Source: a virus
Taxonomy: Duplodnaviria; Caudoviricetes
IMG/VR virus record: IMGVR_UViG_3300020455_000016
Location: 1 to 58,617 of that record
DNA: 58,617 nucleotides
Strand: one strand, 5' to 3'
Within the stretch, counting starts at the first letter, position 1; every line of letters begins with the position of its first letter. The notes beneath the pieces were generated by a model. The model was not told the origin of the DNA. It worked only from the letters and a program-made list of their open reading frames with translations, and did no database searches. The translations under genes were made by a program, and so were the position numbers. This document shows, in pieces, positions 1 to 35,004 of the stretch.

Positions 1-506
1 AAATACTCGTGTGATTTAGTACATCTATCCTTCACACTTTCAGGCATTGGATTAGGTTTATGCCATATAATATCTTGTCTTAAATACCATCCATCTGCCC
101 TCAATGCAAACGCTAACATCCATGGAATACCTATGAGATCTTTCTCTTTTAGTCCTTCTAATTTGTTTGCTCTTTTAGCACATTTATCAGGTAAATCTTG
201 TTTATTATTTGATACAGTTTGTTGTACTAATGCTTGTCCTTTTCCAGGACGATAGTTATAATAACTGTCACCAATATTCAACCATAATGTACCATCATCA
301 GTCAATACATTCTTAACTTGTCTGAATACTTCAACTAATTGTTGTATGTATTCTTCAGGACTTTGTTCTTGTCCTATTTGATTATCTTCTCCACCATAGT
401 CTCTTAAACCGTAATATGGTGGAGATGTGACACACATTCTTGCTGAATTGGGTAAGAAACCACACAAGGTCTCTCTACAATCACCATATAAAATTGTGTC
501 TCTCAT
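1..506 (-). CDS. DNA methyltransferase, N4-C/N6-A family (beta-class layout), runs off the window edge
   Basis: Manual translation MRDTILYGDCRETL...CVTSPPYYGLRDYG...LWLNIGDSY...GWYLRQDIIWHKPNPMPESVKDRCTKSHEY contains the SPPY catalytic motif. Not in the ORF track. Confidence 0.9.
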   Translation of the reverse strand, partial: MRDTILYGDCRETLCGFLPNSARMCVTSPPYYGLRDYGGEDNQIGQEQSPEEYIQQLVEVFRQVKNVLTDDGTLWLNIGDSYYNYRPGKGQALVQQTVSNNKQDLPDKCAKRANKLEGLKEKDLIGIPWMLAFALRADGWYLRQDIIWHKPNPMPESVKDRCTKSHEY

Positions 507-676
507 TTGATTATATCCCATATCATTCTCACTATCATCATAGGTATTATGATATAGTAAATCCACATCACCCACATACCAAATTGATTATAGGCACTAC
601 CACGTTTATAGTTACTGACTGGTGGAATATTTCTTTTCCACACATCACTTGACATATAATCTTGTTCTTTAATCAT
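503..676 (-). CDS. Small membrane protein (57 aa)
   Basis: Manual translation MIKEQDY...FGMWVMWIYYIIIPMMIVRMIWDIIK; its stop overlaps the methyltransferase start (ATGA). Confidence 0.6.
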   Translation of the reverse strand: MIKEQDYMSSDVWKRNIPPVSNYKRGSAYNQFGMWVMWIYYIIIPMMIVRMIWDIIK

Positions 677-11967: not shown

Positions 11968-12666
11968 CTATTTCTCTCCAGATTTAATATACCATCCTGT
12001 CAATATATATTTATCTTTGTCGCCACATAGTAATCCACCTCTATGTGTATGAGTAAAACCAGCAGGCCAAACAACTACAGTACCTTGTGTTGGTTTAATT
12101 CTTCTCTTTTGATATAGAAATTCGGTCTCCCCTCCATCATCCACATCATTTAAATATATCATCCATACTATATCTCTTTGATGAAAATAGTATGATCCAT
12201 TCTCGTGATGCCATACATGATACCCACCACCAGGTTTTGTTCTTTGTAACTTAATATCTGATGATAAGAAACCTATCTTTGCTAATACACTATAATAATC
12301 AATATAATGTGTCACACATGATTTAAGAAATTGATTGGTTTGTGTAGTCCAACCAGAATCAGTATAATTTAATAGAAATGATTCATCTTCACGATTATGC
12401 TTACCATTGTACATAGATGCACCATTCATGTACATCACTTCATTACTTTGATCAGTTGCAACTGGCAGTACATCAGTAATTTGTGGATCTATCTTATCAG
12501 ATAATTTCTGATCAAGCATAGCATCACCATATTTTATTATATTATCACACCATGGTTTAGGTACAAAACCTTCCCATACACCAATAAAGTCATCAAAAGA
12601 TGCTTTAGTCAACTTATCATCCTTCATCAAGTTGAGAGGACGATAAGGTGTCAATTTTTCTGTCAT
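11968..12666 (-). CDS. 2OG-Fe(II) oxygenase
   Basis: GGGYHVWHHE, WMIYLNDVDDGGETEF, WPAGFTHTHRG and KYILTGW motifs. Confidence 0.9.
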   Translation of the reverse strand: MTEKLTPYRPLNLMKDDKLTKASFDDFIGVWEGFVPKPWCDNIIKYGDAMLDQKLSDKIDPQITDVLPVATDQSNEVMYMNGASMYNGKHNREDESFLLNYTDSGWTTQTNQFLKSCVTHYIDYYSVLAKIGFLSSDIKLQRTKPGGGYHVWHHENGSYYFHQRDIVWMIYLNDVDDGGETEFLYQKRRIKPTQGTVVVWPAGFTHTHRGGLLCGDKDKYILTGWYIKSGEK

Positions 12667-20873: not shown

Positions 20874-23800
20874 TTATACTTCTATTAGATACCAACCAGT
20901 TTTGGATGTAGGAGCAGCAGTACCACCATCAGGTGTACTATTTCCTACGTATAACAATGCAAACCCAGCAAATGGAGTTTGAACAACTAATTCACCACCT
21001 TGATAAGCACTTAAGTCAGCAGTATTACCTGACAACATTGCAGTTCCTGTATTATCACTAGCGTTTTGTACCTTAACATTTGTTGCTGCTCTAATAACCA
21101 ATGACATGTTGTATGTTAAGAGTCCACCTATATCTATGATACGAATCATATCACCAATTAATGGATTCTGTGGTAGTTTAACAACTGTATTCTGTGAAAC
21201 ATCCAACACATAATTTGTATTGACTGCTGCATTAATTTCAAAGTCAGCAGAGTATTCCCACTTCCTACCACCTGTCTGGGTGAAGTAGTTAGATATACCA
21301 GCAATATTAACAGCACCGTCATTCTCAACACTGAAGATTTTATTTCCTCCAGAATTAATTGTTAAATCACCACCATTAATAGTTGCATCTTTAGTTACAA
21401 CTAGGTCACCACCAAATGTACTTGTACCTGTACCTAGAGCAGAGAATGAACCATATGATGTAAAGTCACCAGAAGAATTAACAAATTTCAATCTTGGTGT
21501 AGTGCCATCATCACCAAAGATATCAATATCACCACCATTGATGGTTAAATCACCAGTTGCAGTATCTACTTCTAATGTAGTTCTCTTTGTGATGGTATTA
21601 GATCCACCATTAGTTAATCTAAACCACTCTGTCTCCTCTACTACTGAACCGTTAAGAGTAAATGAATCCTCAATGGTTAGTTTACCAGCGATAGTGGTAT
21701 CACCAGTAACAGCATTAACAGTTAATTTATTATATCCTTGACCAACACCCAAGTCACCTTGTAGTTTGGTATTTCCTGTTAGTGATTGTACTTCAAAGGT
21801 TCTATTCTCTGGATCTCCACCATCAGTTACAATTAGAGATTTAATCTCTGTACTGATAAGATCTACAACCTTAACTATCTCTGTATCAGATAGTAAGAGA
21901 TAATCAAATTCCGTTAAGACTCCACCAAATTCTGCAACACCTATCCTTACATTTTGATCATCATCAATAAGATTAGAAGCACTCTTGACTCTAATCTCTG
22001 CTTCTGTTGGTTCATTATCCCAAAGTACTGTACCAGCAGCAAGATTACCTCCTATCTTAACTGTACATGATGTACCAGTAGGAGTTAAACCACTCTGCAC
22101 AATCCACTCACCATTTAATTCTGATGTTGTACTACCACTAATAGCGATAGACTCACCATAATCAATACTCAAATCAGCATTAGTCTTACTGTTACCCCAG
22201 TTGATAGTTAGAATGTCATTTCCAGTAGAAACCAGAGTTGTACCAGCAATATCTGTATTAGATAACAGGAGACTTGATATAGGATCTATCTCATCATCAA
22301 GATCAAGGTCAAATCCTGTAATGTATGTTGCGTTAACTTGCTTATCAAGTTTAGCAATGACACAATCATCTGGGTGATCAGTTCTCTTTGTAGTACCATC
22401 AAGTCCACGACTAACTGCTAATCTATAACCATCTGGATCATTACCATTAGTAATGTTAATTAATCCTTCAACTCTAACTATCTCATTCTGATTCTCATTC
22501 TTGGTAAGTGTTGTACCATTTGGATTCAAACCATTAGGAGAACTTGCATGACCTCTTTCAATTAGTAGTAAGTCACCAATCTTAAAGTCAGTAACAGAAG
22601 GTTGTGTTATTGGTAAAACATATAAAGAACCAGATGCATTAACACCTTGAACTTTAAATGTAATATCATCACCACTTGGATTACCTAAAGAAGCAGCAGA
22701 TATTGTAAGATCATCATTATCTACGTAATTAGATCCTGGAGCAACTACCTCAATAGTAGCATTTCCACTAGCGTCAACAATGACTGTGAATAATGCTCCT
22801 GTACCCTGTCCACCTGTAACTTCTACGAATGAGTATGTAGTATTAGCAACCCATGTAGAACTCTGTGATGGAGAAATAGTATCGATATTAACAATTTGAC
22901 CTGATGAAACTAGATATGAATCTCCACCCCAAGGTCCAACACCCTGTGTATCAATCAACTTACCTGTATTACTATACTTAAGGAAGTCTACGTTAGGATT
23001 TTCAAGAGAACCTACAACATGTGTTGATCTTCCTGCACCAAACCTATCTCTTTCTATTTCAATAATACCTGCTTTCTGTCCACCAACCAATTTGATGTCA
23101 GAATTACCAGTTGTACTTGCAAGAATGTTAAGACTATTCCTTACGGTAGTGCTACCACCAAGAGATGCAATCTCAACTTTAGAAGAGTTAAGACCTAATG
23201 TTAGATGAGTAGTATCAGTACCATCAAATACATTAACCTTACCTGCTTGAGTAAAGATACGTGTTTCGGATGTACCAGCAAAAGAACCGATCTCTAATGT
23301 ACCAGCAGTCTTTGTCTGATATGTACCAATCAGTGTTGAACTAGCAGGATTTGCAGCAGCACCACCAAGAGTGATAGTACAACTACTTGTTACCTGATCA
23401 GTAGCACTACCAATATCTACGATAGAACTACTAGTTCCTTTGTGTATCTCAAGTATACTATTACCAGCAGAAGCACCCATTCTAAATGTATGGGTTTGAC
23501 CAACAGCAACGTTGTTACCAACGTTTATTTGTTGTGACTGTGTGGTATTATTACCAAGAACGATAGACTCTGCATTGTTTAGACCAATGAAGAAGTCTGT
23601 ATCAGTATTAACGAAATTGAATGTTCCAGCAGTACTGTTAATGTCTCCACCATCAACACTTAAATCTTCAGTTATTTGAACATTTCCTGTAAATCTTGCA
23701 TCACCAACAACAACCAAGTTTTTATCTAATTCATTCTCTGCTGCTAAACCAATGGTAGTGTTAATACCAACACGTCCACCGTTAGCAGTAGAAACACGTA

Positions 23801-26800
23801 ATGTAGCAGCATTATTTGGAGTGGCACTATCACCACCAACCAAGAATGCATTTGTTACATCGAAGTATGTTTTGTTATTTGATGGTTCAGATAGATAATT
23901 ATTTGCTGTAACATCACCATTAGCGTCATAAGTAACAAGAGACTTACCAGAGATGAATGCTGTACCAACAACATCTAGGTTAGCACGAGGTTCTGTATCC
24001 TCATTTACATGACCAGTTAAAGCACCCTCAATTGCCATTCTAGCAATTGTGTTAACACCTAACTGAAGATCGCCTGGTACCTGTGTCTCTGTACGTAGTA
24101 CTTCAGCACCGATTACACCTAGTTCCTTCCAACTAGAATTAGATACCTCTAGTTTAGCACCAGCACCTTGTGAGTCCCAGTCATATACTTCAGCACCAAT
24201 TGTGTTGTATACTACAATCTTACACTTATTATTATCAACACCTGCCTGATCTGCCTCGGTAATAGTCCAGATACCATTTATAAATGTATTGCTAAAGTTA
24301 GAAATACGTAATAAATTACCTACCTGAACACCAAGTCCAGCATTATCACTACCAACTTGCCACTCAATCTCTACTGTTGTAGTATTATCAGCAGTTACCT
24401 TAAGGATATTAGAATCAGTAATCTCTGTATAGTAGTTTGCATAGATCCATCCCCATGAACCAGACTTACCTACTTCCTTACCTTTAAGAAGAATATCTCC
24501 ATCTACTGGTGTATTAGAAGAACCATATGTAATAGTCTGTTCAGCATAGAATGAATTGCCACCACTAGCAACTAATGCAGTCTGATTAGGTGTAGTATTT
24601 GATGGTTTACCACCTGTATAATGTGTCTTTATAGTATAAACCTGACCTGGATCAGAGAGATTACCTCTTGGGTTAAATGCAAATACAGCAGCATTAACTT
24701 GGTTCTCGGTTAGAACAATATCACCAGACTTATTATTAATGAAACTTTGACGTGAAAGTGTTGGATCGCCAGTTGAAGCATCAATTAAACTTTGTACACG
24801 TAAAGAATCACCAACAGAAGGATCAACAGTAATGGTTACAGGATTCTGGAAGAATGCCTCACCTTCAACAGTAATCTTATCATTGAATGTAACAGCAGTA
24901 TCAAATGTTGTTACTAATACACCAATCTTGTCATCATCATCCTCTGTCTCAAGAAGTAATGCTTGTTCAAGGAAGGTTTCTTCGCCTGTAATAGCGTTGA
25001 TCTTCTTGTTACCTATATAAAGGTCTCCGTTGGAGTTTAGACCTGTGTAGAAGACTATACCGCCATCTTCACGTTTTGCTTGAGCATAGAAGTCTTGCTT
25101 GTCTGAAAGAACAACTTCCTGACGTACAGGGAAACCAGTTGAATAGTTACCTGGACCAAAACCAAGATATTCAAACGTATGGTTACCAGATCTAGCAATA
25201 GATGGTCTTCTTAATTCAACATAGAATCTACCTTCTAATGGATATGCAGAGTCACCAGCAATAGATATCTGTCTGTTCTCTGAACCTATAGAGGCATTAC
25301 CAGACTGTGCTTGAATTCTATTATCAATAATATTACTTGCTAAATCAGATGTACTATTAGTATATTCATATGGTGCTAAAGGATCAGTCTCTAATAGATC
25401 AACCACTGCTTCTTTAGTCTCACTGAACTTACTATCGTTTAGGGTTACATAACCGTGGATGTAGTTGTGAGCAGCAGCAACTGATGATGGTGGATCAAGT
25501 TTAGTTGTATCTCTAGATCCATCTACCTGAACTTGGAACCATAAGGGGTCATTCTTAAAGTTTAAAGGATATAGATTAGAAATTGGTTGTGAGAACTTAT
25601 AGTTCTGGAAATTATTACCTACACCAGCACCTGTTGGGAATGGTGAGATATTACCACGTACACATGTTAAGTAGTAGATACCTTCCTGTTGGTTAGGAAT
25701 AACTTCTTGAATTGTTTCACTATTAAAGATGTAGAATGTATCTTCGATTTCAGGTACGTCTGATAGTCCAGCAATCGTATAAGTATGACCTGTTGGTGTA
25801 GTTACCTTATCACCAGGAGTTACTGTATATACATTAGCACCTGCTACTCTATAAAGATAATTAGAAAGACTAGATCTTGACTTATCATCAGTTGTTCCAG
25901 CAGCATCTGGATTACCATTTAGTAACCAGAACGTTCCATTAGATTGTGTAAATGTTGTAGTAAGACTCGCATCATATTCAAGTTTTCCTGTTGTATTCTT
26001 AAGTATGACATAATCATCTGATGATATAGGATCTGTATAATATCCATGAACATAACCAGTACCTGTGTTATTACCAGTCCATGTTACAAAGTTAGTTTCA
26101 GTGTTATTAAGTAGATCTGTTTGTATGCCAGCACCTTGAGGTGGTGTAATCTTAATAATTACAAATTGCTCATTCTTGAGTAATGCATTGTCAACAGTAT
26201 GATCAAATACAGTTAGTTCTAATCTATCATCAGATAAGTTATTTTGAACTGTCTTTGCACTTTGAATTGTTACCTTAACTTTACTATCAAATTCAATTTG
26301 TAATCCATTATTATATGCATCATAGAATAGATTATCGTTGTCTAAATCAGTAACACCTGCAGTATCAAGATCTGTTAGAGATAAACCTAACTGTTCAGTA
26401 GGACGTGCTGGGTTACTAAATTCAGCAACATCTGGAGCACCATTACTAAATGGTTCTAGATAGAATTTCTGTGGTCTTAATTTTCTTCTATCATCTGTTC
26501 TTGTCTTAATGACATAACCATTAAGTGGTTCTCTTACGTTCTGTAAATATTGTGGAATAACATAACGTAAACGATAGATACGATCATCAGGAGTTCTCTC
26601 ATCCTCTAGTCTCTCAAACCATGTATCAGGTGAAAAGAGATTACCAGTACCATCTAGGAAGTCAGCAGCATGGAATCTAGTCAGAATATTATTTGGATCA
26701 GCACCACCAACAGAATCTGGTTTAACATTTAAGTACCAACGTTGATATACTTCTGCATCATATTTTAAAGGACTGGTTATTTTATCACCATATGCTAGGA

Positions 26801-29800
26801 AGTCACTACCACTGTTAGCAGTAAATACTACTGCATTAACACCTGCTCTAGCATCTGACTCTGATGTATGAACACTAAACTTGGTCTTCGTTACCCATCT
26901 TGGATAGTAATAAGTATTAGAATCTACTACACCACCACCAGCAATAGTTGGTAGTTGAGAACTAGCATCAGCAGAAGTCTTAAAGAATATTTTCTGTACA
27001 GATACAGAATCCAATGGCATATCAAATACGTGTGGAATATCTGTTTCGATATTAGTACCACTTACGTTACAAATATAACGATGTAGATCATACTTATCAT
27101 CTAGTACATACTGTTGAATCTCTACATCTACACCAGTATCAACGTAATCTGTTTCTGGAGAGAAGATGTATATACCAGCAGCAGCATTCTCTTTAGATGC
27201 AGCAAGCATTAATTTTGTAGAATTTGTTCTATCAAATTCTTTTCCTGCTCCATGCCATGTCTTTGGATATGTTTCTCTACCTGGAGCAATTACATAATAG
27301 ATTTGGTTAGTAGCAAATCCTACTGGAAGTCTTACAAGTCTCTTGTCCAAAGCATAATTTGCTTTTGGTACAAGTCTTACAGGTGTACCAGTTGTCCATC
27401 CATGTGGGTCAGATTGACCACCACCAGTAGCAATAGTGAATATTGTAGCACGACCAGACAATGAAGAAGAATTGATGATTGCTTCTACTCTTGTTATTGA
27501 TGATGCATTACCTGATAAAATAAGATTAAAAGTATCGTAGTAACCTTGTATTGCACTAGCAATATTTGTACACTCTGGATACTGTGTATCAATAGTAATG
27601 GTCTCATCTGTATACTGGGATTCAGTAGCATAAGTGGCTGTATTCTTAAAGTACAACCAAGCAGTTGATGTACCAGCAGATGTAACAGTATATGGACTAC
27701 CAGTACTTCTATCCTTTATACTAATTGTTGTAGCATTAATAACCTGATCAATAACAAGATTAGATCCAGGAATATTATTTACAACTGCACTTGTAGCAGT
27801 TGTATCAACGTATCCTTCAGTAAAATCAGACTGAAGATATTCAGTAACTGTCATTCCTGATACTAGTCCAGAAGTATCACCAACAATTACATTGGAACTA
27901 TTTTGTGTAAAGGTACAATTCTTAATTAGAAGTGTAAAGTTACGCATTGCACCAAACATCAATCGTTTGGCGTGATCCATAGCATCTAATGTTTCTGATA
28001 ACTCATTGGTAATATAGTTAACAGTATTGCCTTGGATGTATGATTCACCAGCATTAATACTATTGATGTTACCACCAACACGTAAATCCTTGATAACAGC
28101 ATCAACAAAGTATCCAATATCTCTTGCACACTTGGTGATAGTGATAGCAGGATTAGTTACAAGTGCTGGATATTTTGCTGTAATATAACCATATGTTTCA
28201 GATGCAATCCAATCCTTATTCCTTTCAATAAGAGTTGCAGCATCTTGAGCAGTGTTGAAATCATCAGTTGCATCACCACCAATTTCAAATGAAGTATTGA
28301 AATCAGCAGGTTTTAATGTTGATAGTGAAGCAGTGTATGATGTCCATCCACTTGGTGATAGTTCAGCATGATATGTTTGCTTACCACCAGCACCAACTGA
28401 TTGTAACTTAACATAGAGTTCCTCTCCTGACTTGGCACCTATTCTATATCCACCAATATTAGCAGCAGGTCTATCTGCAGGACTTTGATTATTATCACCA
28501 GAAAGGAATAGTTTTGTGTGGTTTGACTGATCATTAGACTTTTCGATATCTAATGTATAGTACTGTTGCTTAACAGTTGCAGTAGCAGAAGTATTAACTA
28601 CTTTAGGTGGAATAATAGCATCAATATATCCACCTTTATCTTGATTAAAGGCAAATCCCTTAAATCCTTTGGAGTGGAGTGAAGTATTACCAAAGTTACT
28701 GTTAGAGTTGGTGATACTCATATCACCACCAGACTCTAGTAAGAAGTGGTTGTGGAATCCAACAGCGAATACTGAAACTGCCTGTATAAATGCATCATCA
28801 GTACATTTGATATGGAAGTTTCTCCAGTCATCCTTCCAGAATGCATCACCTTTAGTATGATATGGAACAGTAGCAAATGCATCAGATAATGATGCTTGAT
28901 TCCATGTGTTATTAAATCTATCGTAACGGATGAATGCTCTATCGTCTTTCTGTAGAGATACACCAGTGTATTGGGCAACAACCATAGACTTGAATCCAGT
29001 TACCATGGATCCATCTGCCCACATACCACAAATACCCCATGTAGATCTGATGGAACAGTTGAATACGTATGGTGATGCAGATTCAACAGAGTCAATTTCT
29101 GCTTGTATAAGAGCACCAGATCCTAATTGACCTGCTGCAGCAGTGTAAGTAGCACCAGATACTAATCCAAGACCAGCAGCATTAGTTGGTATCTCATATG
29201 TGAATAATTTATCGTTAGTTGAATCAATTGTAGTTACTTTCCATGTACCATTAATTTCATTAGATAGTCCAGTGTTAAGTACAGCAACGTACTGTCCTAC
29301 GAAATAACCATGGTCAATCTTGGTTGTAACAGATAATGTAGAAGATGATCCACCAGCATTATCTTCAATTTTAATACTCTCGATTGATCTAGTATCAGAT
29401 AGAGGACCAACAATTCTGGTTTCTTGTACAAGAGCATCAAATTCTCCATCATCTATAGTAGGTTGGAACTGTGCAAATGCTTTTCCTACCTTTGTATAGT
29501 AGAGATCTAGTTCATCATTACCAGCATAAGTCATCACAGTGAGCTTATGGTGAGAATATTCAGGAACTGATAGTGATGAGAAATCACCTTTCTTATTATA
29601 AACCTTACCTACATTATCAGCAGCATCATAAAGAGGTGAATTTGTAGATAAATCACCATCCTTAATAGTAAACTGCCATAAGTAGCAACCACCAGTTAAA
29701 TTAAAGACAGAAGACCTAGGTTGATCTCCATCTATACAATCAGGAACATATAGTGGTCTAACAATTGTTCTACGTAGGTCATAACCTATTAGTGAACAAC

Positions 29801-32800
29801 CTCTAGGTACGATAGTACCACCAGTAGAAGCGTTGAACTTATAAAGAACGTTGTCTGGGTTAGAAAGATCTAGAATACTATCATCTTGCCACTCTTCTAA
29901 TGCTGAATTATAATTGAAGATAGGTACTGTACCTGTAACCTGTACAGAAGCAAGGTTATTAAGATTAGCAGCACTGATAGTACTTGTTAAAATATTTGTT
30001 AATGTAATGATGCTAGATTGTACATCAGAACATGCCTGTGGATTACCAGATAAACCATAGTCAATATCTGGTGCACCTTGAGTACCAGCAACTGCTGGTC
30101 CTGGACTAACATCTAAATTTTTCGCATATAATTGGTTGCTGACTGCTTTTGTCATTGCATCACGAGCACCATTAAATGCAGTAACAGACTCGGCAACCTC
30201 ACCTGTTAATCCATTAACGATTGGATTACCATCACGATCAAAATATGTCTTTGTATTAGAAATGGTATTACTATTACCACCATTTTTCAAGTCAGATACA
30301 ACAGCATCAATAAAATACCCAATATCTCTCTTGCATTTTTCTTCTCCTGCAGGAATCTTTGCAGAAACTGATTCTACAGGTAGATTAGTTAGATTACCAT
30401 CAGTAATTGTTGATGTAACAAGAGCAGTTAAGTTTCCAATAAATGACTGAATATCAGCACAAAGGTTAACATTCTCTCTATTATTCTGGTTATCAGCAAA
30501 TGTTACTGAATTTTCAGTAGATTCTACAAACGTATGACCATAATTACCACCAGTAATCAATGCTCCAGAAATTGCATCATGGAATGTATGAGCAGTAACG
30601 TTAGAAGATGTACCGACATTAAGTTTTATCTTACCATCTTGTCTTGTTAAACTATTAGCAACTGAACTTTCCCATGTATGATTATAGTTACCACCAGCAG
30701 TTACTGCACCAGGATCTGAACCAACATATTGGTGTACAGAGGTATCAGGAGAAATACCAATATCAACTGTAACTGTTGTACCAGTTGTAGATATAATTGG
30801 AAGTAACGAATTGTATGCTGGATCACTAGTACGAGGATATGAGTGAATACTCTGATTACTATCATATCCACATGTGAAATCTATAGTATTAGCACCAATC
30901 TTGATTGAATCACCTGCTTTTACTATTCCTGAAGGAGTTGCAGAAACCCACTCATGAGCATATGCACCACCAGTCTTAACTGCATCAGCAACTGCTTCTG
31001 AAAATGTGTGTAAGTAGTTACCACCACTAATTACTGCACCACTATTTGCTGTTACAAATGTATGAACAGATTGATCAGATGAAACACCAACATTAACTGA
31101 AATTTTACCAGTCTGTTTCTTCATTCCACCTGCTACAGAACCTTGGAATGTATGTTGTGAAGTATTATATGATGTTCCTACCTGAACTGTAAAATTGTCA
31201 TCTGTTACATTACTAATTTGCAACCATCTTCCTACTACAGGATCTGTAGCTCTAGGATATGTGTGTTGAGTAGCATTGCTATCCTTCTCACAAGTAAATA
31301 TTAAAGAATTTGGTTCAAAACTAACTCTATCGCCACTATTAAATCCATGACCTGTTAACTTAACAGTTAATTCTCCAGTAATTGGATTATAAGCACTACC
31401 AATTTCTGGTTGATGAGAAGTTACTGCAACATTAGTAATAGTAACAGCAGTATCGTATGCTGGATCATCAGCAGTTGCACCACCTTGACCAGTTGCACGA
31501 GGATATAAATGCTGGGTTTGATCACTATCAGCAGCACATGTAAAGATAATTGATTCGTTCTCTAACTTAATGCTAGATCCTTCAATTAAATCATGCTGTC
31601 CAATATCTAATACAAGATTACCTGTAGAAGGAGTATAATCTGCATCAGAAACGTTATAATTTACAATAGGAGATGAACCTACATTAATAGTAATATCTCC
31701 ATTTTGCTTCTTAAGACCAAAATCAGTAGCACTAACAAAAATATGTTGTGATATATCTTCTGATACACCAACAGTAACATCAAACGTTTGGAAATTAGTC
31801 CCCTGAATGTTTACACTCGCTACATTACTTATAGTTAACCACTGACCACTAACAGGATCAGTAGAACGAGGATAAGGATGGTTAGATTGGTTATTATCTC
31901 TAGCACAAGTAAATGTTATAGACTCATCTGCAAGCATTATTTTGTCACCATTCTGGAATCCAGTTCCAGAAGTGGTTATTGACAATACACCAGCAACAGG
32001 ATCATATTCAGCAGTATTTACAGTAAAATCTGTTGTACCAACAGATGTGATAGCAGTTGGTTCATGTGAAACAGGATCTGTTGCACGAGGATAAGTCTTA
32101 ATAGAACTATTACCATCCATCTCACAAGTAAACTTGAGAGAATCCTGATTTATCATCAAGTTGGTTCCTGATTTTAAATCATGAGATCCAACAGTTAATG
32201 TTAAATCACCATTTGCAGGGTTATATGTAGCACCTGTAGGTGTATAATTTACAGTAGGAGTTGCACCAACATTAACTTTGAATGAATCATTAGCAATGTC
32301 AGTAATTGGTAAGAATTTACCACTTGCAGGGTCAGTAGATCTTGGATATGCATGCTCGGAATTCTTTCCGTCCATATCACAAATGAATACTAATGATCCA
32401 TCTTCTATCTTAATTCTATCACCATCAGTATATCCATGATTATTAATGCTAATTACTAGATCACCAGTAACAGGATCAAAAGTAGCACCTTCTGCTGTTT
32501 TATTAGTAGGTCCACTAAAAGAATGAGTACCAATCTCAAGTTCCAACAAACCTGTTGTTGGAGTATAGTCAGCATCACTAACATTATATGCTACATCAGG
32601 TGAAATACCAACATTAACTTCAAATGATGTTGCATCTACATTAGAAATCGGCAACCACTGCTTACTAGCAGGGTCTGTAGGACGTGGATATGCATGATCA
32701 GTAGAATAACCATCTTTTGCACACTTAAAGGTTATAGCACCATCATCCAACTTAATGAAATCACCATTTTGGAAAGTATGAGCTCCAATATCAATTGTTA

Positions 32801-34124
32801 AAATACCAGTAGTTGCATTATACTTTGTCTCTGAAGTAGGAGTATATGTAGTACCAACACTAGTAATTTGTAATGCTGCGTTGTATGCTGGGTCAGTAGT
32901 ACGAGGATATGGATGAGTAGTAGCACCACCATCTTCATCACACTTGAATATGATTGATTCTCCTGCTAATTTAACAGTTTCACCTTTTCCAAGTGTATGA
33001 GCACCAATATCAAGTATTAATTCACCAGTTGTAGGATCATACTCTGCACCTGTTGGTGTGTAGTTAACGATAGGTGTAGCACCAACATTAACTTCTATGT
33101 GGTTAGCATCTGCTACATTTACGATCTCTAGGTACTTACCAGCAGCAGGGTCACTTAATCGTGGATATGTATGATTAGATACATTATTATCCTGATCACA
33201 AGTAAATGTAAGTGAATTTGCCTCAATATTGATGTGATCACCAACTGATAACTGGTGATTTGTAATTTCTAATATTAACTTACCATCAGCAGGAGTGTAA
33301 TCAACATCAGATGGTTTAAATTGCTTTGTTACAGAACCATAATCAGATCCTGGTGCATTATCAGCAGTAATTGTTAGATCTTGTGCTGATAACTGGTTAG
33401 CAATAGCAAGGAACATATTGTCTCTTGCTTTATTAAATCCAAAAATTGCTTCTGCTTCTTCGCCTTGTAAACTACCATTCAACCATGTCTGTCCAGATTC
33501 ATTAAAGAATGTCTGAAGGAATTTACGTGTGTATTGATTACCATCTGCTTGAGCAACATCAAGTGATATTGCATCAATAAAGAGACCTAAATCTCTTTTA
33601 CACTTATCTTCATATTGCCCATGAGTAGAATATTGAGCAAGAGTAGCATTCCAAGAATTATTAATAATTTCTTGACGGTTTAATTGAGAAAGTCTAAATG
33701 CGTCCTTATATCTTGAGTAGTCTTCAGTTTGATTATCTGTAGGGTAGAAAAAGTCAGGGTGATTTATAGCAATTTCAGCAGCACCACGATCAATAATTGT
33801 CTGCCTATTTGCAATAATTAGATTAGCACCATCAAAATATCTTGCTTCAGGATTAGCAGCCTCAACTAATCCAGGTCTGTTATCAATATAGTGATTACCA
33901 GGCATCAACATGATGCTAAACTGGTCGAATCTATCGTTATCCTTACCTGGAAGATAAGAATACCTAGAAACCTCTATAAAAGCTCTCTGAATCGTCTTGA
34001 ATGGACGTAGAGGTGAATTACCTCTGTTATCTAACTCATCAGTCGCATTAAAATCATCTGGCGACACATATAGGTACTTACCTGTTTTACTTGAATATAG
34101 GTTATCAAGTCTTGTTAAGGGCAT
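20874..34124 (-). CDS. Giant virion structural / fibre protein (4416 aa)
   Basis: MPLTRLDNL...YVSPDDFNATD...GNS..RPFKTIQRA N-terminus of the conserved cyanomyovirus giant protein; beta-helix-like segments; C-terminal LPQNPLIGDMIRIID...GWYL; late promoter upstream. Confidence 0.85.
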   Translation of the reverse strand: MPLTRLDNLYSSKTGKYLYVSPDDFNATDELDNRGNSPLRPFKTIQRAFIEVSRYSYLPGKDNDRFDQFSIMLMPGNHYIDNRPGLVEAANPEARYFDGANLIIANRQTIIDRGAAEIAINHPDFFYPTDNQTEDYSRYKDAFRLSQLNRQEIINNSWNATLAQYSTHGQYEDKCKRDLGLFIDAISLDVAQADGNQYTRKFLQTFFNESGQTWLNGSLQGEEAEAIFGFNKARDNMFLAIANQLSAQDLTITADNAPGSDYGSVTKQFKPSDVDYTPADGKLILEITNHQLSVGDHINIEANSLTFTCDQDNNVSNHTYPRLSDPAAGKYLEIVNVADANHIEVNVGATPIVNYTPTGAEYDPTTGELILDIGAHTLGKGETVKLAGESIIFKCDEDGGATTHPYPRTTDPAYNAALQITSVGTTYTPTSETKYNATTGILTIDIGAHTFQNGDFIKLDDGAITFKCAKDGYSTDHAYPRPTDPASKQWLPISNVDATSFEVNVGISPDVAYNVSDADYTPTTGLLELEIGTHSFSGPTNKTAEGATFDPVTGDLVISINNHGYTDGDRIKIEDGSLVFICDMDGKNSEHAYPRSTDPASGKFLPITDIANDSFKVNVGATPTVNYTPTGATYNPANGDLTLTVGSHDLKSGTNLMINQDSLKFTCEMDGNSSIKTYPRATDPVSHEPTAITSVGTTDFTVNTAEYDPVAGVLSITTSGTGFQNGDKIMLADESITFTCARDNNQSNHPYPRSTDPVSGQWLTISNVASVNIQGTNFQTFDVTVGVSEDISQHIFVSATDFGLKKQNGDITINVGSSPIVNYNVSDADYTPSTGNLVLDIGQHDLIEGSSIKLENESIIFTCAADSDQTQHLYPRATGQGGATADDPAYDTAVTITNVAVTSHQPEIGSAYNPITGELTVKLTGHGFNSGDRVSFEPNSLIFTCEKDSNATQHTYPRATDPVVGRWLQISNVTDDNFTVQVGTSYNTSQHTFQGSVAGGMKKQTGKISVNVGVSSDQSVHTFVTANSGAVISGGNYLHTFSEAVADAVKTGGAYAHEWVSATPSGIVKAGDSIKIGANTIDFTCGYDSNQSIHSYPRTSDPAYNSLLPIISTTGTTVTVDIGISPDTSVHQYVGSDPGAVTAGGNYNHTWESSVANSLTRQDGKIKLNVGTSSNVTAHTFHDAISGALITGGNYGHTFVESTENSVTFADNQNNRENVNLCADIQSFIGNLTALVTSTITDGNLTNLPVESVSAKIPAGEEKCKRDIGYFIDAVVSDLKNGGNSNTISNTKTYFDRDGNPIVNGLTGEVAESVTAFNGARDAMTKAVSNQLYAKNLDVSPGPAVAGTQGAPDIDYGLSGNPQACSDVQSSIITLTNILTSTISAANLNNLASVQVTGTVPIFNYNSALEEWQDDSILDLSNPDNVLYKFNASTGGTIVPRGCSLIGYDLRRTIVRPLYVPDCIDGDQPRSSVFNLTGGCYLWQFTIKDGDLSTNSPLYDAADNVGKVYNKKGDFSSLSVPEYSHHKLTVMTYAGNDELDLYYTKVGKAFAQFQPTIDDGEFDALVQETRIVGPLSDTRSIESIKIEDNAGGSSSTLSVTTKIDHGYFVGQYVAVLNTGLSNEINGTWKVTTIDSTNDKLFTYEIPTNAAGLGLVSGATYTAAAGQLGSGALIQAEIDSVESASPYVFNCSIRSTWGICGMWADGSMVTGFKSMVVAQYTGVSLQKDDRAFIRYDRFNNTWNQASLSDAFATVPYHTKGDAFWKDDWRNFHIKCTDDAFIQAVSVFAVGFHNHFLLESGGDMSITNSNSNFGNTSLHSKGFKGFAFNQDKGGYIDAIIPPKVVNTSATATVKQQYYTLDIEKSNDQSNHTKLFLSGDNNQSPADRPAANIGGYRIGAKSGEELYVKLQSVGAGGKQTYHAELSPSGWTSYTASLSTLKPADFNTSFEIGGDATDDFNTAQDAATLIERNKDWIASETYGYITAKYPALVTNPAITITKCARDIGYFVDAVIKDLRVGGNINSINAGESYIQGNTVNYITNELSETLDAMDHAKRLMFGAMRNFTLLIKNCTFTQNSSNVIVGDTSGLVSGMTVTEYLQSDFTEGYVDTTATSAVVNNIPGSNLVIDQVINATTISIKDRSTGSPYTVTSAGTSTAWLYFKNTATYATESQYTDETITIDTQYPECTNIASAIQGYYDTFNLILSGNASSITRVEAIINSSSLSGRATIFTIATGGGQSDPHGWTTGTPVRLVPKANYALDKRLVRLPVGFATNQIYYVIAPGRETYPKTWHGAGKEFDRTNSTKLMLAASKENAAAGIYIFSPETDYVDTGVDVEIQQYVLDDKYDLHRYICNVSGTNIETDIPHVFDMPLDSVSVQKIFFKTSADASSQLPTIAGGGVVDSNTYYYPRWVTKTKFSVHTSESDARAGVNAVVFTANSGSDFLAYGDKITSPLKYDAEVYQRWYLNVKPDSVGGADPNNILTRFHAADFLDGTGNLFSPDTWFERLEDERTPDDRIYRLRYVIPQYLQNVREPLNGYVIKTRTDDRRKLRPQKFYLEPFSNGAPDVAEFSNPARPTEQLGLSLTDLDTAGVTDLDNDNLFYDAYNNGLQIEFDSKVKVTIQSAKTVQNNLSDDRLELTVFDHTVDNALLKNEQFVIIKITPPQGAGIQTDLLNNTETNFVTWTGNNTGTGYVHGYYTDPISSDDYVILKNTTGKLEYDASLTTTFTQSNGTFWLLNGNPDAAGTTDDKSRSSLSNYLYRVAGANVYTVTPGDKVTTPTGHTYTIAGLSDVPEIEDTFYIFNSETIQEVIPNQQEGIYYLTCVRGNISPFPTGAGVGNNFQNYKFSQPISNLYPLNFKNDPLWFQVQVDGSRDTTKLDPPSSVAAAHNYIHGYVTLNDSKFSETKEAVVDLLETDPLAPYEYTNSTSDLASNIIDNRIQAQSGNASIGSENRQISIAGDSAYPLEGRFYVELRRPSIARSGNHTFEYLGFGPGNYSTGFPVRQEVVLSDKQDFYAQAKREDGGIVFYTGLNSNGDLYIGNKKINAITGEETFLEQALLLETEDDDDKIGVLVTTFDTAVTFNDKITVEGEAFFQNPVTITVDPSVGDSLRVQSLIDASTGDPTLSRQSFINNKSGDIVLTENQVNAAVFAFNPRGNLSDPGQVYTIKTHYTGGKPSNTTPNQTALVASGGNSFYAEQTITYGSSNTPVDGDILLKGKEVGKSGSWGWIYANYYTEITDSNILKVTADNTTTVEIEWQVGSDNAGLGVQVGNLLRISNFSNTFINGIWTITEADQAGVDNNKCKIVVYNTIGAEVYDWDSQGAGAKLEVSNSSWKELGVIGAEVLRTETQVPGDLQLGVNTIARMAIEGALTGHVNEDTEPRANLDVVGTAFISGKSLVTYDANGDVTANNYLSEPSNNKTYFDVTNAFLVGGDSATPNNAATLRVSTANGGRVGINTTIGLAAENELDKNLVVVGDARFTGNVQITEDLSVDGGDINSTAGTFNFVNTDTDFFIGLNNAESIVLGNNTTQSQQINVGNNVAVGQTHTFRMGASAGNSILEIHKGTSSSIVDIGSATDQVTSSCTITLGGAAANPASSTLIGTYQTKTAGTLEIGSFAGTSETRIFTQAGKVNVFDGTDTTHLTLGLNSSKVEIASLGGSTTVRNSLNILASTTGNSDIKLVGGQKAGIIEIERDRFGAGRSTHVVGSLENPNVDFLKYSNTGKLIDTQGVGPWGGDSYLVSSGQIVNIDTISPSQSSTWVANTTYSFVEVTGGQGTGALFTVIVDASGNATIEVVAPGSNYVDNDDLTISAASLGNPSGDDITFKVQGVNASGSLYVLPITQPSVTDFKIGDLLLIERGHASSPNGLNPNGTTLTKNENQNEIVRVEGLINITNGNDPDGYRLAVSRGLDGTTKRTDHPDDCVIAKLDKQVNATYITGFDLDLDDEIDPISSLLLSNTDIAGTTLVSTGNDILTINWGNSKTNADLSIDYGESIAISGSTTSELNGEWIVQSGLTPTGTSCTVKIGGNLAAGTVLWDNEPTEAEIRVKSASNLIDDDQNVRIGVAEFGGVLTEFDYLLLSDTEIVKVVDLISTEIKSLIVTDGGDPENRTFEVQSLTGNTKLQGDLGVGQGYNKLTVNAVTGDTTIAGKLTIEDSFTLNGSVVEETEWFRLTNGGSNTITKRTTLEVDTATGDLTINGGDIDIFGDDGTTPRLKFVNSSGDFTSYGSFSALGTGTSTFGGDLVVTKDATINGGDLTINSGGNKIFSVENDGAVNIAGISNYFTQTGGRKWEYSADFEINAAVNTNYVLDVSQNTVVKLPQNPLIGDMIRIIDIGGLLTYNMSLVIRAATNVKVQNASDNTGTAMLSGNTADLSAYQGGELVVQTPFAGFALLYVGNSTPDGGTAAPTSKTGWYLIEV
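30498..33330 (-). repeat. Nine nested ~100-aa beta-domain repeats inside the giant protein
   Basis: Nine YPR motifs, each preceded by F.C..D, and nine closing H.[FWY] strands. Confidence 0.85.
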
Positions 34125-34184: not shown

Positions 34185-34697
34185 TTATGATGGCGATATT
34201 TTCTTAAATTCGAAACTACCATGCTTCGAACCCCATATTTGTTCTGCTGTTCCCACTTTAAAACCTCTATCTACAACATTATAATAATCTTTACCTAAAA
34301 CCACATCAGTTTGTAAATATGTCATTTCATTTTTCCATGGAACAAGACAGTCACAATGATTATTACTTCCTCTAAATTCTCTTCCATTAAAAGTGCATAT
34401 ATTATCACATTCAGGTTTAGGGGTTAATTCCAAAGATTCCAAATCTTTGAAACCCCTATGCTTTGGTTTGTCGAACGTAAAGTTCTTAATTCTTATATTA
34501 TCTCCCTCTTCTACTGGTTCTATAACAAATGTCCTATACGGGGAATTTAACTGATAGTTATATGCTTGTTCCCCGTAAAAATAGTTTCCTACCCGTTTAT
34601 GAATAATCCTGACCATAGCAAATCTGGCAGGATATGTAAACGCTTGTACTTTATTCTCCCATGTTCCTTCAAACCATTCACGAAATTTATCAATCAT
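34185..34697 (-). CDS. cpeT: CpeT/CpcT-like (T-type) phycobilin lyase
   Basis: WFEGTWENKVQAF.YP..FA.V...H, YGEQAY....PYR, CD...CDC, DRGF....QIWGS..G.FEFKK; MIDKF start chosen. Confidence 0.9.
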   Translation of the reverse strand: MIDKFREWFEGTWENKVQAFTYPARFAMVRIIHKRVGNYFYGEQAYNYQLNSPYRTFVIEPVEEGDNIRIKNFTFDKPKHRGFKDLESLELTPKPECDNICTFNGREFRGSNNHCDCLVPWKNEMTYLQTDVVLGKDYYNVVDRGFKVGTAEQIWGSKHGSFEFKKISPS

Positions 34698-35004
34698 CTT
34701 TTGGCAATAATTCAGGATCATTAACTGGTAATTCAAAACAGAGTGGATGGCATTCTTCCTCCATTAGGTACGAATGCCAACGATACAACTGTTCATCATA
34801 ATATTCTTCACTTTCTAATGCTTCAGTATGAACTGAAGGATGATCTTGTATAATCTGTGGTAATTCGTCGAAGGTGTAAGGAATACCCTGAATGAAATAC
34901 ATCCTTACCACATTACCCATATAAAAGACATACTTTTGTGAAAGTACGTACTCCATATCACTCGTCGTATACTCTACATTCGAATGCATCGGGATGATTG
35001 TCAC
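34690..35004 (-). CDS. Conserved cyanophage hypothetical protein
   Basis: VRMYFIQGIPYTFDELP...YLMEEECHPLCFEL motif. Confidence 0.8.
   Translation of the reverse strand: MTIIPMHSNVEYTTSDMEYVLSQKYVFYMGNVVRMYFIQGIPYTFDELPQIIQDHPSVHTEALESEEYYDEQLYRWHSYLMEEECHPLCFELPVNDPELLPKDD

Follow-up and report, generated by a model that had tools for sequence, protein, structure and literature searches.

The window analysed here, i.e. the whole stretch of 58,617 nucleotides (nt) of the IMG/VR virus record IMGVR_UViG_3300020455_000016 (Duplodnaviria; Caudoviricetes), carries on its minus strand a single 13.2-kb open reading frame (ORF) at positions 20874..34124, whose product has 4416 amino acids (aa). Positions 29960..33850, corresponding to aa ~92-1388 of this protein, hold an array of small beta domains which, according to an original prediction made from the DNA letters alone, do not follow one another in tandem but are inserted into one another in the manner of Russian dolls. 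The gene was annotated as encoding a giant tail-fibre-type virion protein: PHROG 4527 (“short tail fiber protein”) gave a full-length profile match of 5061.8 bits, PHROG 529 (“tail fiber protein”) matched with an E value of 4.9e-282, and PHROG 5342 (“tail fiber protein”) matched as well. Pfam recognised no family in the entire protein at E up to 0.1, and phmmer of the entire protein against the sequences of the Protein Data Bank (PDB) returned 0 matches. A tblastn search with aa 1-1408 matched 462 of 50,697 phage records, nearly all of them cyanophages (364 records whose organism name begins with Synechococcus, 61 with Cyanophage, 24 with Prochlorococcus and 13 with Marine), the closest being a marine single-cell virus with 97.5% identity. 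The genes surrounding the giant gene encode baseplate hub / tail lysozyme, tail collar, short tail fibre, tail tube and baseplate hub proteins. Because of the PHROG matches, the cyanophage records and these baseplate and tail-fibre neighbours, the 4416-aa product is best described, on sequence grounds, as a giant virion protein that a T4-like cyanomyovirus encodes in its block of baseplate and tail-fibre genes. Its identical-protein cluster (P0002) is present on two contigs, and a search for further orthologues with the region of the closing strands retrieved only the two contigs already known and none that was new.

Nine cores of the type F.C..D...H.YPR were found in the array, in agreement with the number originally proposed, with their YPR motifs at aa 320, 406, 479, 593, 678, 751, 874, 956 and 1096. 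Only two copies, D7 (aa 703-806) and D9 (aa 908-1003), are uninterrupted, and the other seven are split into two or three pieces. With a hidden Markov model (HMM) of D7 and D9 only, the other copies match as truncated domains ending at model positions ~68, ~75-91 or ~22, and later fragments follow, aa 1068-1137 from position 21 and aa 1008-1029 and 1166-1189 from position 79. To avoid circularity, a 99-state barrel profile was built from 506 unique uninterrupted copies found in 121 homologous proteins and used for a peeling procedure, in which complete copies are found and excised and the search is then repeated. Each round revealed exactly the next shell, and after eight rounds nine full-length barrels had been obtained with no partial match left. 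All nine rebuilt barrels span the model from state 1 or 2 to state 97 or 98 with 77.8-115 bits and align end to end, and their pieces tile aa 272-1209 without gap or overlap, so that the proposed excision and realignment of the domains in silico gave a complete set.

The tree that results from peeling, D1[D2[D3[D4[D5[D6[D7][D8[D9]]]]]]], is exactly the one that had been predicted. The breaks fall in three insertion loops, which follow H.. at model state 22, I..V at state 69 and VNVG at states 81-85, again as anticipated, and the interruption of D4 by several hundred residues was borne out as well, its two halves (aa 516-544 and aa 1070-1143) being separated by 525 residues. Along the outgoing path, D1 opens at 33054..33311 (aa 272-357; all coordinates of these pieces refer to the minus strand), is broken after VNVG and was rebuilt in round 8 with aa 1192-1209 (model 2-98, 94.6 bits); D2 opens at 32835..33053 (aa 358-430), is broken after I..V and was completed in round 7 by aa 1162-1191 (model 1-97, 89.9 bits); D3 opens at 32580..32834 (aa 431-515), is broken after VNVG and was completed in round 6 by aa 1144-1161 (model 2-98, 108.5 bits). 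The D4 opening (32493..32579, aa 516-544) stops after the first hairpin at H.. and was joined to aa 1070-1143 in round 5 (model 2-97, 77.8 bits), followed by the D5 opening (32238..32492, aa 545-629), broken after VNVG and completed by aa 1052-1069 in round 4 (model 2-98, 98.7 bits), and the D6 opening (32019..32237, aa 630-702), broken after I..V and completed in round 3 by two pieces, aa 807-825 and 1034-1051 (model 1-98, 81.5 bits).

The uninterrupted leaf barrel D7 occupies 31707..32018 (aa 703-806; model 2-97, 99 bits) and is followed by the middle piece of D6, its VNVG strand (31650..31706, aa 807-825), found by peeling. D8 then opens at 31404..31649 (aa 826-907), is broken after I..V and was completed in round 2 by aa 1004-1033 (model 2-98, 83 bits), and it encloses the innermost barrel D9, uninterrupted at 31116..31403 (aa 908-1003; listed at model 3-98, 115 bits). 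On the return path the pieces recovered by peeling are those of D8 (VNVG and HTF strands, 31026..31115, aa 1004-1033, also seen in the structural model and in fold-match rows), D6 (GGNYLHTF, 30972..31025, aa 1034-1051, also in the five-domain model and one fold-match row), D5 (GGAYAHEW, 30918..30971, aa 1052-1069, with a predicted local distance difference test (pLDDT) value of ~77-82 in the five-domain model), D4 (core with FTC..YPR through HQY, 30696..30917, aa 1070-1143, also found by HMM and addressed by a complex prediction), D3 (GGNYNHTW, 30642..30695, aa 1144-1161), D2 (LNVG and HTF, 30552..30641, aa 1162-1191, also found by HMM) and D1 (GGNYGHTF, 30498..30551, aa 1192-1209).

The order in which the domains are closed, the last opened being the first closed, held over all eight rounds of peeling. 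As a control for chance, the order of the seven closing pieces was shuffled in 199 random orders: a single one gave nine complete domains, and this one kept the native sequence of piece types, while the remaining orders gave 2-8. The native order yields nine complete domains and the reversed order three. The proposal that the copies are nested like brackets thus received clear support. A similarity matrix of the nine barrels identified D2 and D8 as mutual closest copies (57% identity between the opening and 56% between the closing parts); this pair is suggestive of a sibling relation in sequence, and the other pairings are mixed.

The barrel array lies within two further layers of helical domains, which were traced with an HMM based on six helical domains that occur naturally without interruption in homologues. 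The pieces of each domain are complementary on this model, H1 consisting of model 2-30 and 37-162 and H2 of model 1-129 and 119-163. The H1 opening helix (33720..33848, aa 93-135, minus strand, as are all parts named here) matches model 2-30 at aa 95-123 (independent E value, iE, 1.3e-4); the H2 opening part, with the first helix and the CKRD core (33312..33719, aa 136-271), matches model 1-129 at aa 137-270 (iE 5e-46); the H2 closing helix with the conserved Cys (30363..30497, aa 1210-1254) matches model 119-163 at aa 1203-1249 (iE 2.6e-5); and the H1 core (CKRD) and closing helix (29931..30362, aa 1255-1398) match model 37-162 at aa 1261-1391 (iE 4.8e-35). In BLASTP, one segment joins residues 2-180 of rebuilt H1 to residues 2-175 of rebuilt H2 (38.8% identity, E 1.5e-29). 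Since the HMM pieces are complementary and H1 and H2 align as a single segment, H2 is placed inside H1 and the barrel array inside H2, as had been proposed. A third helical domain, H3, was observed further downstream (aa 1960-2097, 27834..28247); it carries a CARD motif and matches the helical HMM at model 4-139 only. Downstream of it (window ~27400..28247, aa ~1960-2240), a Cys-containing helix, ECTNIASAIQGYY..., resembles by eye the closing helices of H1 and H2, and judging from this pattern H3 probably hosts an inserted domain too.

H1 in turn interrupts the N-terminal domain of the protein. The first part of this host domain (aa 1-88, 33861..34124, minus strand) matches PHROG 529 positions 1-88 and PHROG 38839 positions 1-89 and can be aligned with aa 1-~100 of excursion-less relatives; the resumed part (aa 1399-1695, 29040..29930, minus strand) matches PHROG 529 positions 97-382 at aa 1407-1695, and the excursion-less relatives align from aa 1410. 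Positions 1-88 and 97-382 of the same profile thus stand 1,318 residues apart in the 4416-aa protein. The matches listed for the N-terminus include 120 shorter relatives, 74 of them with at least 250 aa, and in 37 of these 74 the flanks are joined directly, the counterpart of the part from aa ~1388-1410 on coming straight after residues 1-~100 (46-62% identity). In the five excursion-less relatives that were aligned (P0186, P0168, P0215, P0228 and P0210), ~15 residues replace 1,308 residues. Because natural relatives of the N-terminal domain exist without the entire 1,300-residue excursion, the appendage is evidently optional within the family. For the host domain itself, which would be beta-helix-like according to the original prediction, Atlas feature leads pointed at 0.83 to clusters with NosD/Beta_helix and Pect-lyase families, and Pfam found nothing in this domain at E up to 10. 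Counting H1, H2, D1-D6, D8 and D9, there are ten insertion levels below the host domain, eight of them self-nested, so that the prediction of about ten levels was confirmed. Domain insertion is usually one level deep.

Nesting was then compared among relatives. Of the 1240 barrels recognised in the 121 homologues 613 are split, as are 390 of the 784 in 77 ORF stretches from 79 viral-contig loci. Peeling was complete in 31 of the 121 homologues, with depths of 4-8; apparent breaks at positions 0, 2 and 99, which arise at the borders between tandem neighbours, are artefacts and were left out of the depth counts. The breaks cluster at model states 17, 22-24, 52, 66-69 and 78-85. Relatives thus also use guest loops after states 17 and 52 (just after YPR), which are unused in the protein of the window. 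The comparison of nesting trees suggested in the original prediction was made with close orthologues: P0007 and P0008 have a tree identical to that of the window, and P0013, P0016 and P0021 (59-70% identity) have the same tree with one extra leaf in the second loop of D2. Other relatives have repeated nests, a four-domain nested unit being present in tandem seven times in P0009 and five times in P0020. On the basis of such peeled sequences, the nested architecture is a trait of the family, with hundreds of nests of differing trees. The barrel family is a small one, with 718 of 1,835,955,588 representative proteins matching at E up to 0.001.

Some further observations concern the same units. 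The four-domain unit (breaks at states 85, 82-85 and 69) was also seen at loci L013, L027, L029, L035, L052, L053 and L066, and D5-D6-D8-D9 of the window have the same shape, with D7 as an extra guest. The 6538-aa protein P0003 has 29 barrels at an apparent depth of 11, with one partial match left, which would be deeper than the eight levels of the window if it holds.

Structure prediction was applied to the inner part of the nest. AlphaFold2 modelled D8[D9] (aa 826-1033), from an alignment with 24 natural two-level nests, with a mean pLDDT of 93.9 and a predicted template modelling score (pTM) of 0.84, the closing piece reaching 85-95; two long strands, E68-79 and E176-186, lead to and from the inserted barrel. 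The five-domain unit D5[D6[D7][D8[D9]]] (aa 545-1069, 16 alignment rows) was predicted with a pLDDT of 85.3 and a pTM of 0.64, no segment falling below 50 and the closing pieces lying at 76-92. Foldseek gave no match of the D8[D9] model to the PDB at E up to 0.001. VIA-align, which was run against 48,161 chains and reports only the first and last aligned residue, matched D9 to the phi92 endosialidase (4hiz_A, residues 256-340, Z 7.3, rmsd 2.2, 78 aligned) and matched the barrels to the FCCH domain of ubiquitin E1 (D7 to Uba1 4p22_B at Z 7.6, D9 at Z 7.2, and 9mc4_A within Z 7.2-7.6), Z 7-8 being a range that the tool calls middling; a tail domain of phage N4 matched the uninterrupted barrels at Z 6.8-7.0. 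According to these models, each barrel of ~100 residues is of a six-stranded type like those of Uba1 FCCH and endosialidase. Searched at E up to 10, D7 and D9 gave no match to PF16190 (E1_FCCH); a precomputed PF16190 label is attached to some homologues. In D7, D9, H1 and H2 Pfam recognised no family with a useful score, and the barrel family is without a Pfam entry.

Single solved barrels were also found to span the pieces of split domains. For D8, 6 of 50 rows do so in the D8[D9] model (1..208; 71-79 aligned, Z 4.2-5.4) and 8 of 50 in the five-domain model (276-278..489; Z 4.8-5.4), and for D6 one row of 50 (5o0x_A; model 81..507, aa 625-1051; 80 aligned, Z 4.8). The two halves of D4 (aa 1066-1143 and aa 513-544) were predicted as separate chains with 29-row alignments each; the runs agree in at least 90% of the contacts, with a partner pLDDT of at least 58.

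Taken as a whole, aa ~86-1409 are read here as one out-and-back excursion of the chain, carrying a domain tree ten insertion levels deep with a fork at D6 that leads to D7 and to D8-D9, and we put the probability of this reading at about 0.88. Along the sequence, the chain supplies the first helix of H1, most of H2 and the N-terminal parts of D1-D6; midway it finishes D7, contributes a further strand to D6, begins D8 and finishes D9; and on its return it closes D8, D6, D5, D4, D3, D2, D1, H2 and H1 in exact reverse order before re-entering the host domain, in which the loop carrying the excursion corresponds to the ~15 residues of the relatives. Each child barrel would be tied to its parent by two antiparallel linkers, and these linkers argue for a stiff, projecting and branched appendage whose start and end lie side by side on the fibre protein. 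Inner domains may fold as they emerge, and the outer ones would have to wait for up to ~900 further residues. Since orthologues differ by single leaves, growth by insertion of barrels or units into loops is a plausible route, and the tree may grow or shrink as free loops gain or lose leaf barrels or entire nested units. The original description, a branched, double-stranded stalk grown by repeated domain-in-domain insertion, therefore stands as regards the insertion and the D6 fork, which are seen in the sequence, the relatives and the models, and as regards the long paired strands between parent and child, which are seen in the D8[D9] model; the overall shape of a stalk is what we infer from them. 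The role of the appendage is likely to be contact with the host-cell surface or spacing at the baseplate, and a function at the host surface fits the likeness of the barrels to those of endosialidase and of the N4 tail.

Several points weigh against this reading. Peeling stalled with partial matches left in 90 of the 121 homologues, presumably reflecting other domain types that sit in the loops, and, as far as sequences can tell, the bracket rule is fully demonstrated only where this barrel family supplies all the inserts. The alignments given to AlphaFold have little depth, with 25 rows in one and 16 in the other, and around D6/D7 a few rows of the latter are misaligned; the models cover the inner barrels D5-D9 only. 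For split D5 (model 1..525) the only rows have Z <=3.0, and many rows align the D5 opening alone (1..78). The two halves of D4, predicted as a complex, scored 0.35 against 0.01 for the best control; this is weak support. Of solved complexes 58 of 80 attain the mark concerned, and so do 2 of 110 mismatched pairs; at <=0.60, however, only 7 of the 80 and both mismatches do. The modelled nesting in three dimensions is thus argued from confidence values and from the end residues of fold matches, the aligned residues being unproven, and what is said here of the shape and rigidity of the nest, of its oligomeric state, of metal binding and of function is inferred.

A possible contribution of metal ions to such a structure was already suggested by the original prediction, on account of conserved Cys and His residues. 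In the 506 uninterrupted copies C38, Y49 and P50 are invariant (506/506), followed by R51 (505), H87 (499), D54 (493), H19 (487) and H47 (369, with Lys in 116). A metal clamp is attractive because H19, C38 and H87 sit on three different pieces of a split barrel, and Cys38, His87 and His19 could, by their conservation, hold the pieces of the barrel together via a metal ion.

The alternative that survives best leaves the nest as it is and assigns it another purpose. The helical layers are phycobiliprotein-like in sequence, H1, H2 and H3 alike, a likeness that the original prediction had not noticed. A profile of 32 natural copies of the helical domain, including the three of the window, retrieved 117 PDB chains at E up to 1, and among the best 60 of these 117 there are 59 phycobiliproteins or engineered derivatives (smURFP), the exception being the coat protein VP4. 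A profile of the excursion-less relatives retrieved 26 PDB sequences at the same threshold, all 26 of them phycobiliproteins. The top chain of the helical profile is 7efv_A (E 2.5e-5), a C-phycocyanin alpha subunit whose residues 39-103 align to profile positions 5-61; its bilin-binding Cys84 is matched by the invariant Cys of the helical domain, and the three copies of the window, with CKRD, CKRD and CARD, retain Arg86-Asp87 as well. In addition, a gene of the CpeT/CpcT family (34185..34736, minus strand) shares the strand of the giant gene and ends 60 nt before its start, with PF06206 at 108.1 bits against a cut-off of 21 and a match to PHROG 488 (“CpeT-like antenna protein”); a functional link between the two is possible only. 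The light-dependent adsorption of cyanomyoviruses is described as unexplained in PMC6628666, where light-sensitive tail fibres are one suggestion.

From these elements it has been considered that the excursion might be a light-responsive or pigment-bearing virion appendage, in which H1, H2 and H3 would receive bilin from a phage CpeT lyase and the tree, the barrels forming its tip, would couple the chromophore mechanically to host contact; we regard this as rather unlikely. The narrower form, a pigment-carrying or light-responsive module with bilin on H1 and H2 from the CpeT-family lyase and the barrels as scaffold or output arm, is equally doubtful. The almost exclusive retrieval of phycobiliproteins, the Cys on Cys84, the adjacent gene and the adsorption phenotype speak for both, but H3 reached only 12.8 of the 22.2 bits required by PF00502, which gave no match on H1, H2 and the whole protein, the PDB match covers ~60 of ~160 residues and the Arg of C-x-R-D varies among relatives. 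Likewise, cpeT is adjacent in close relatives only: it was found at loci L001 and L002 (contigs that are also represented as L080 and L081), a CpeT match of 25% identity lies 1.7 kb upstream at L039, and no cpeT was seen upstream at L021 (6.8 kb examined) or L063 (1.4 kb examined), the upstream DNA of L014 being too short to count. With none at these two loci and a weak, distant match at L039, the linkage of cpeT is not general. If the appendage did bear a pigment, it would offer a molecular basis for light-dependent adsorption of cyanomyoviruses, and the presence of phycobiliprotein-like layers beside a CpeT-family gene makes this question directly testable.

Completion of the barrels between chains, rather than within the chain, is a second alternative. 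Tail fibres are usually trimers, and the predictions were run on single chains, so that the closing strands might fill the opened barrels of a neighbouring chain of an oligomer, e.g. a trimer, by domain swapping. We consider such swapping very improbable: confidence is high in models of the monomer already, parent and child are joined by short linkers, the order of the pieces is what an intrachain hairpin path requires, and the solved precedent, Si3 of RNA polymerase, is intrachain (PMC10895346). Finally, it is scarcely credible that the array consists of tandem truncated barrels followed by separate short hairpin repeats (GGNY.HTF and VNVG...HTF) pairing locally, since, although the closing pieces are short (18-30 aa) and mutually similar, score just 3-10 bits alone and, in the case of D5, have weak fold rows across both ends (Z <=3.0), each truncated copy lacks exactly the positions that its later piece supplies, in last-in-first-out order only (the one equal shuffle out of 199 having the same type order), the piece that closes D4 is no hairpin but covers three quarters of a barrel (model 21-97), the same complementarity recurs in hundreds of nests with other tree shapes, the closing pieces are modelled at pLDDT 76-95, and split D8 and D6 superpose on single solved barrels.

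The nested excursion can be compared with a few known systems. The closest is Si3 of the cyanobacterial RNA polymerase beta' subunit, which has eight domains of the sandwich-barrel hybrid motif (SBHM) type, four of them discontinuous (PMC10895346), and which a 2026 survey of 2.7 million classified domains (PMC13114784) gives as its example of complex organisation, a six-level recursive insertion. In both Si3 and the phage excursion a small beta domain is repeated in a single chain, discontinuous copies enclosing others, and the whole array is inserted in a host domain, with the chain running out and back; the solved Si3 is elongated, with a length of 150 A (PMC13114784 and PMC10895346). Unlike Si3, the phage barrels match the FCCH/endosialidase fold, with no RNA polymerase chain among the VIA rows listed, and their host is a virion protein of tail-fibre type, whereas that of Si3 is an enzyme, in the trigger loop of beta' (RpoC2). 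The depth is eight self-nested and ten total levels in the phage against the six reported for Si3, the phage nest includes two helical phycobiliprotein-like domains, which Si3 does not, and its tree shape varies even among close orthologues, again unlike Si3. New with respect to Si3 are thus the domain family, the virion host, the depth, the mixed helical and barrel layers and the variation of the tree.

The barrels of phage endosialidases (phi92 and K1F) and the FCCH domain of E1 are each inserted in a larger host domain. They have the same general fold as the phage barrels, but they are single, one-level insertions without detectable sequence relation to them (PF16190 being absent on D7 and D9). 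Phycobiliproteins (PF00502) share with the phage helical domains the helices around the bilin site and the Cys-x-Arg-Asp motif, whereas the phage domains are embedded in a virion protein, split by insertions and below the Pfam threshold. In the needle domain of T4 gp37 the chain runs out to the tip and back, conserved His residues bind metal ions, and the three chains of the trimer are intertwined. The ascending and descending strands are as in the phage excursion, but gp37 is without discrete nested globular domains, and no sequence or fold match to it was seen among the results here, in which no comparison was aimed at gp37. A literature search, with subscription journals and supplementary files outside its scope, retrieved no paper on nested (Russian-doll) insertion in a virion protein.

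Such a protein offers a natural case in which to study how the folding of outer domains is delayed until the inner ones have folded, and its orthologues, which differ by single leaves, can show how domain trees evolve. Whether two-linker connections give rise to rigid branched fibres is a question relevant to protein design, and tools for tandem-repeat and domain annotation will misread nested proteins of this kind. Irrespective of any pigment, recursive self-insertion would offer these phages a general route to stiff, branched and fast-evolving appendages from one gene. Elsewhere in the window, a 2OG-Fe(II) oxygenase-like gene (PHROG 61; 11968..12666, minus strand) was observed between a gene resembling a tail-fibre assembly chaperone and a short-tail-fibre-like gene of 1118 aa.

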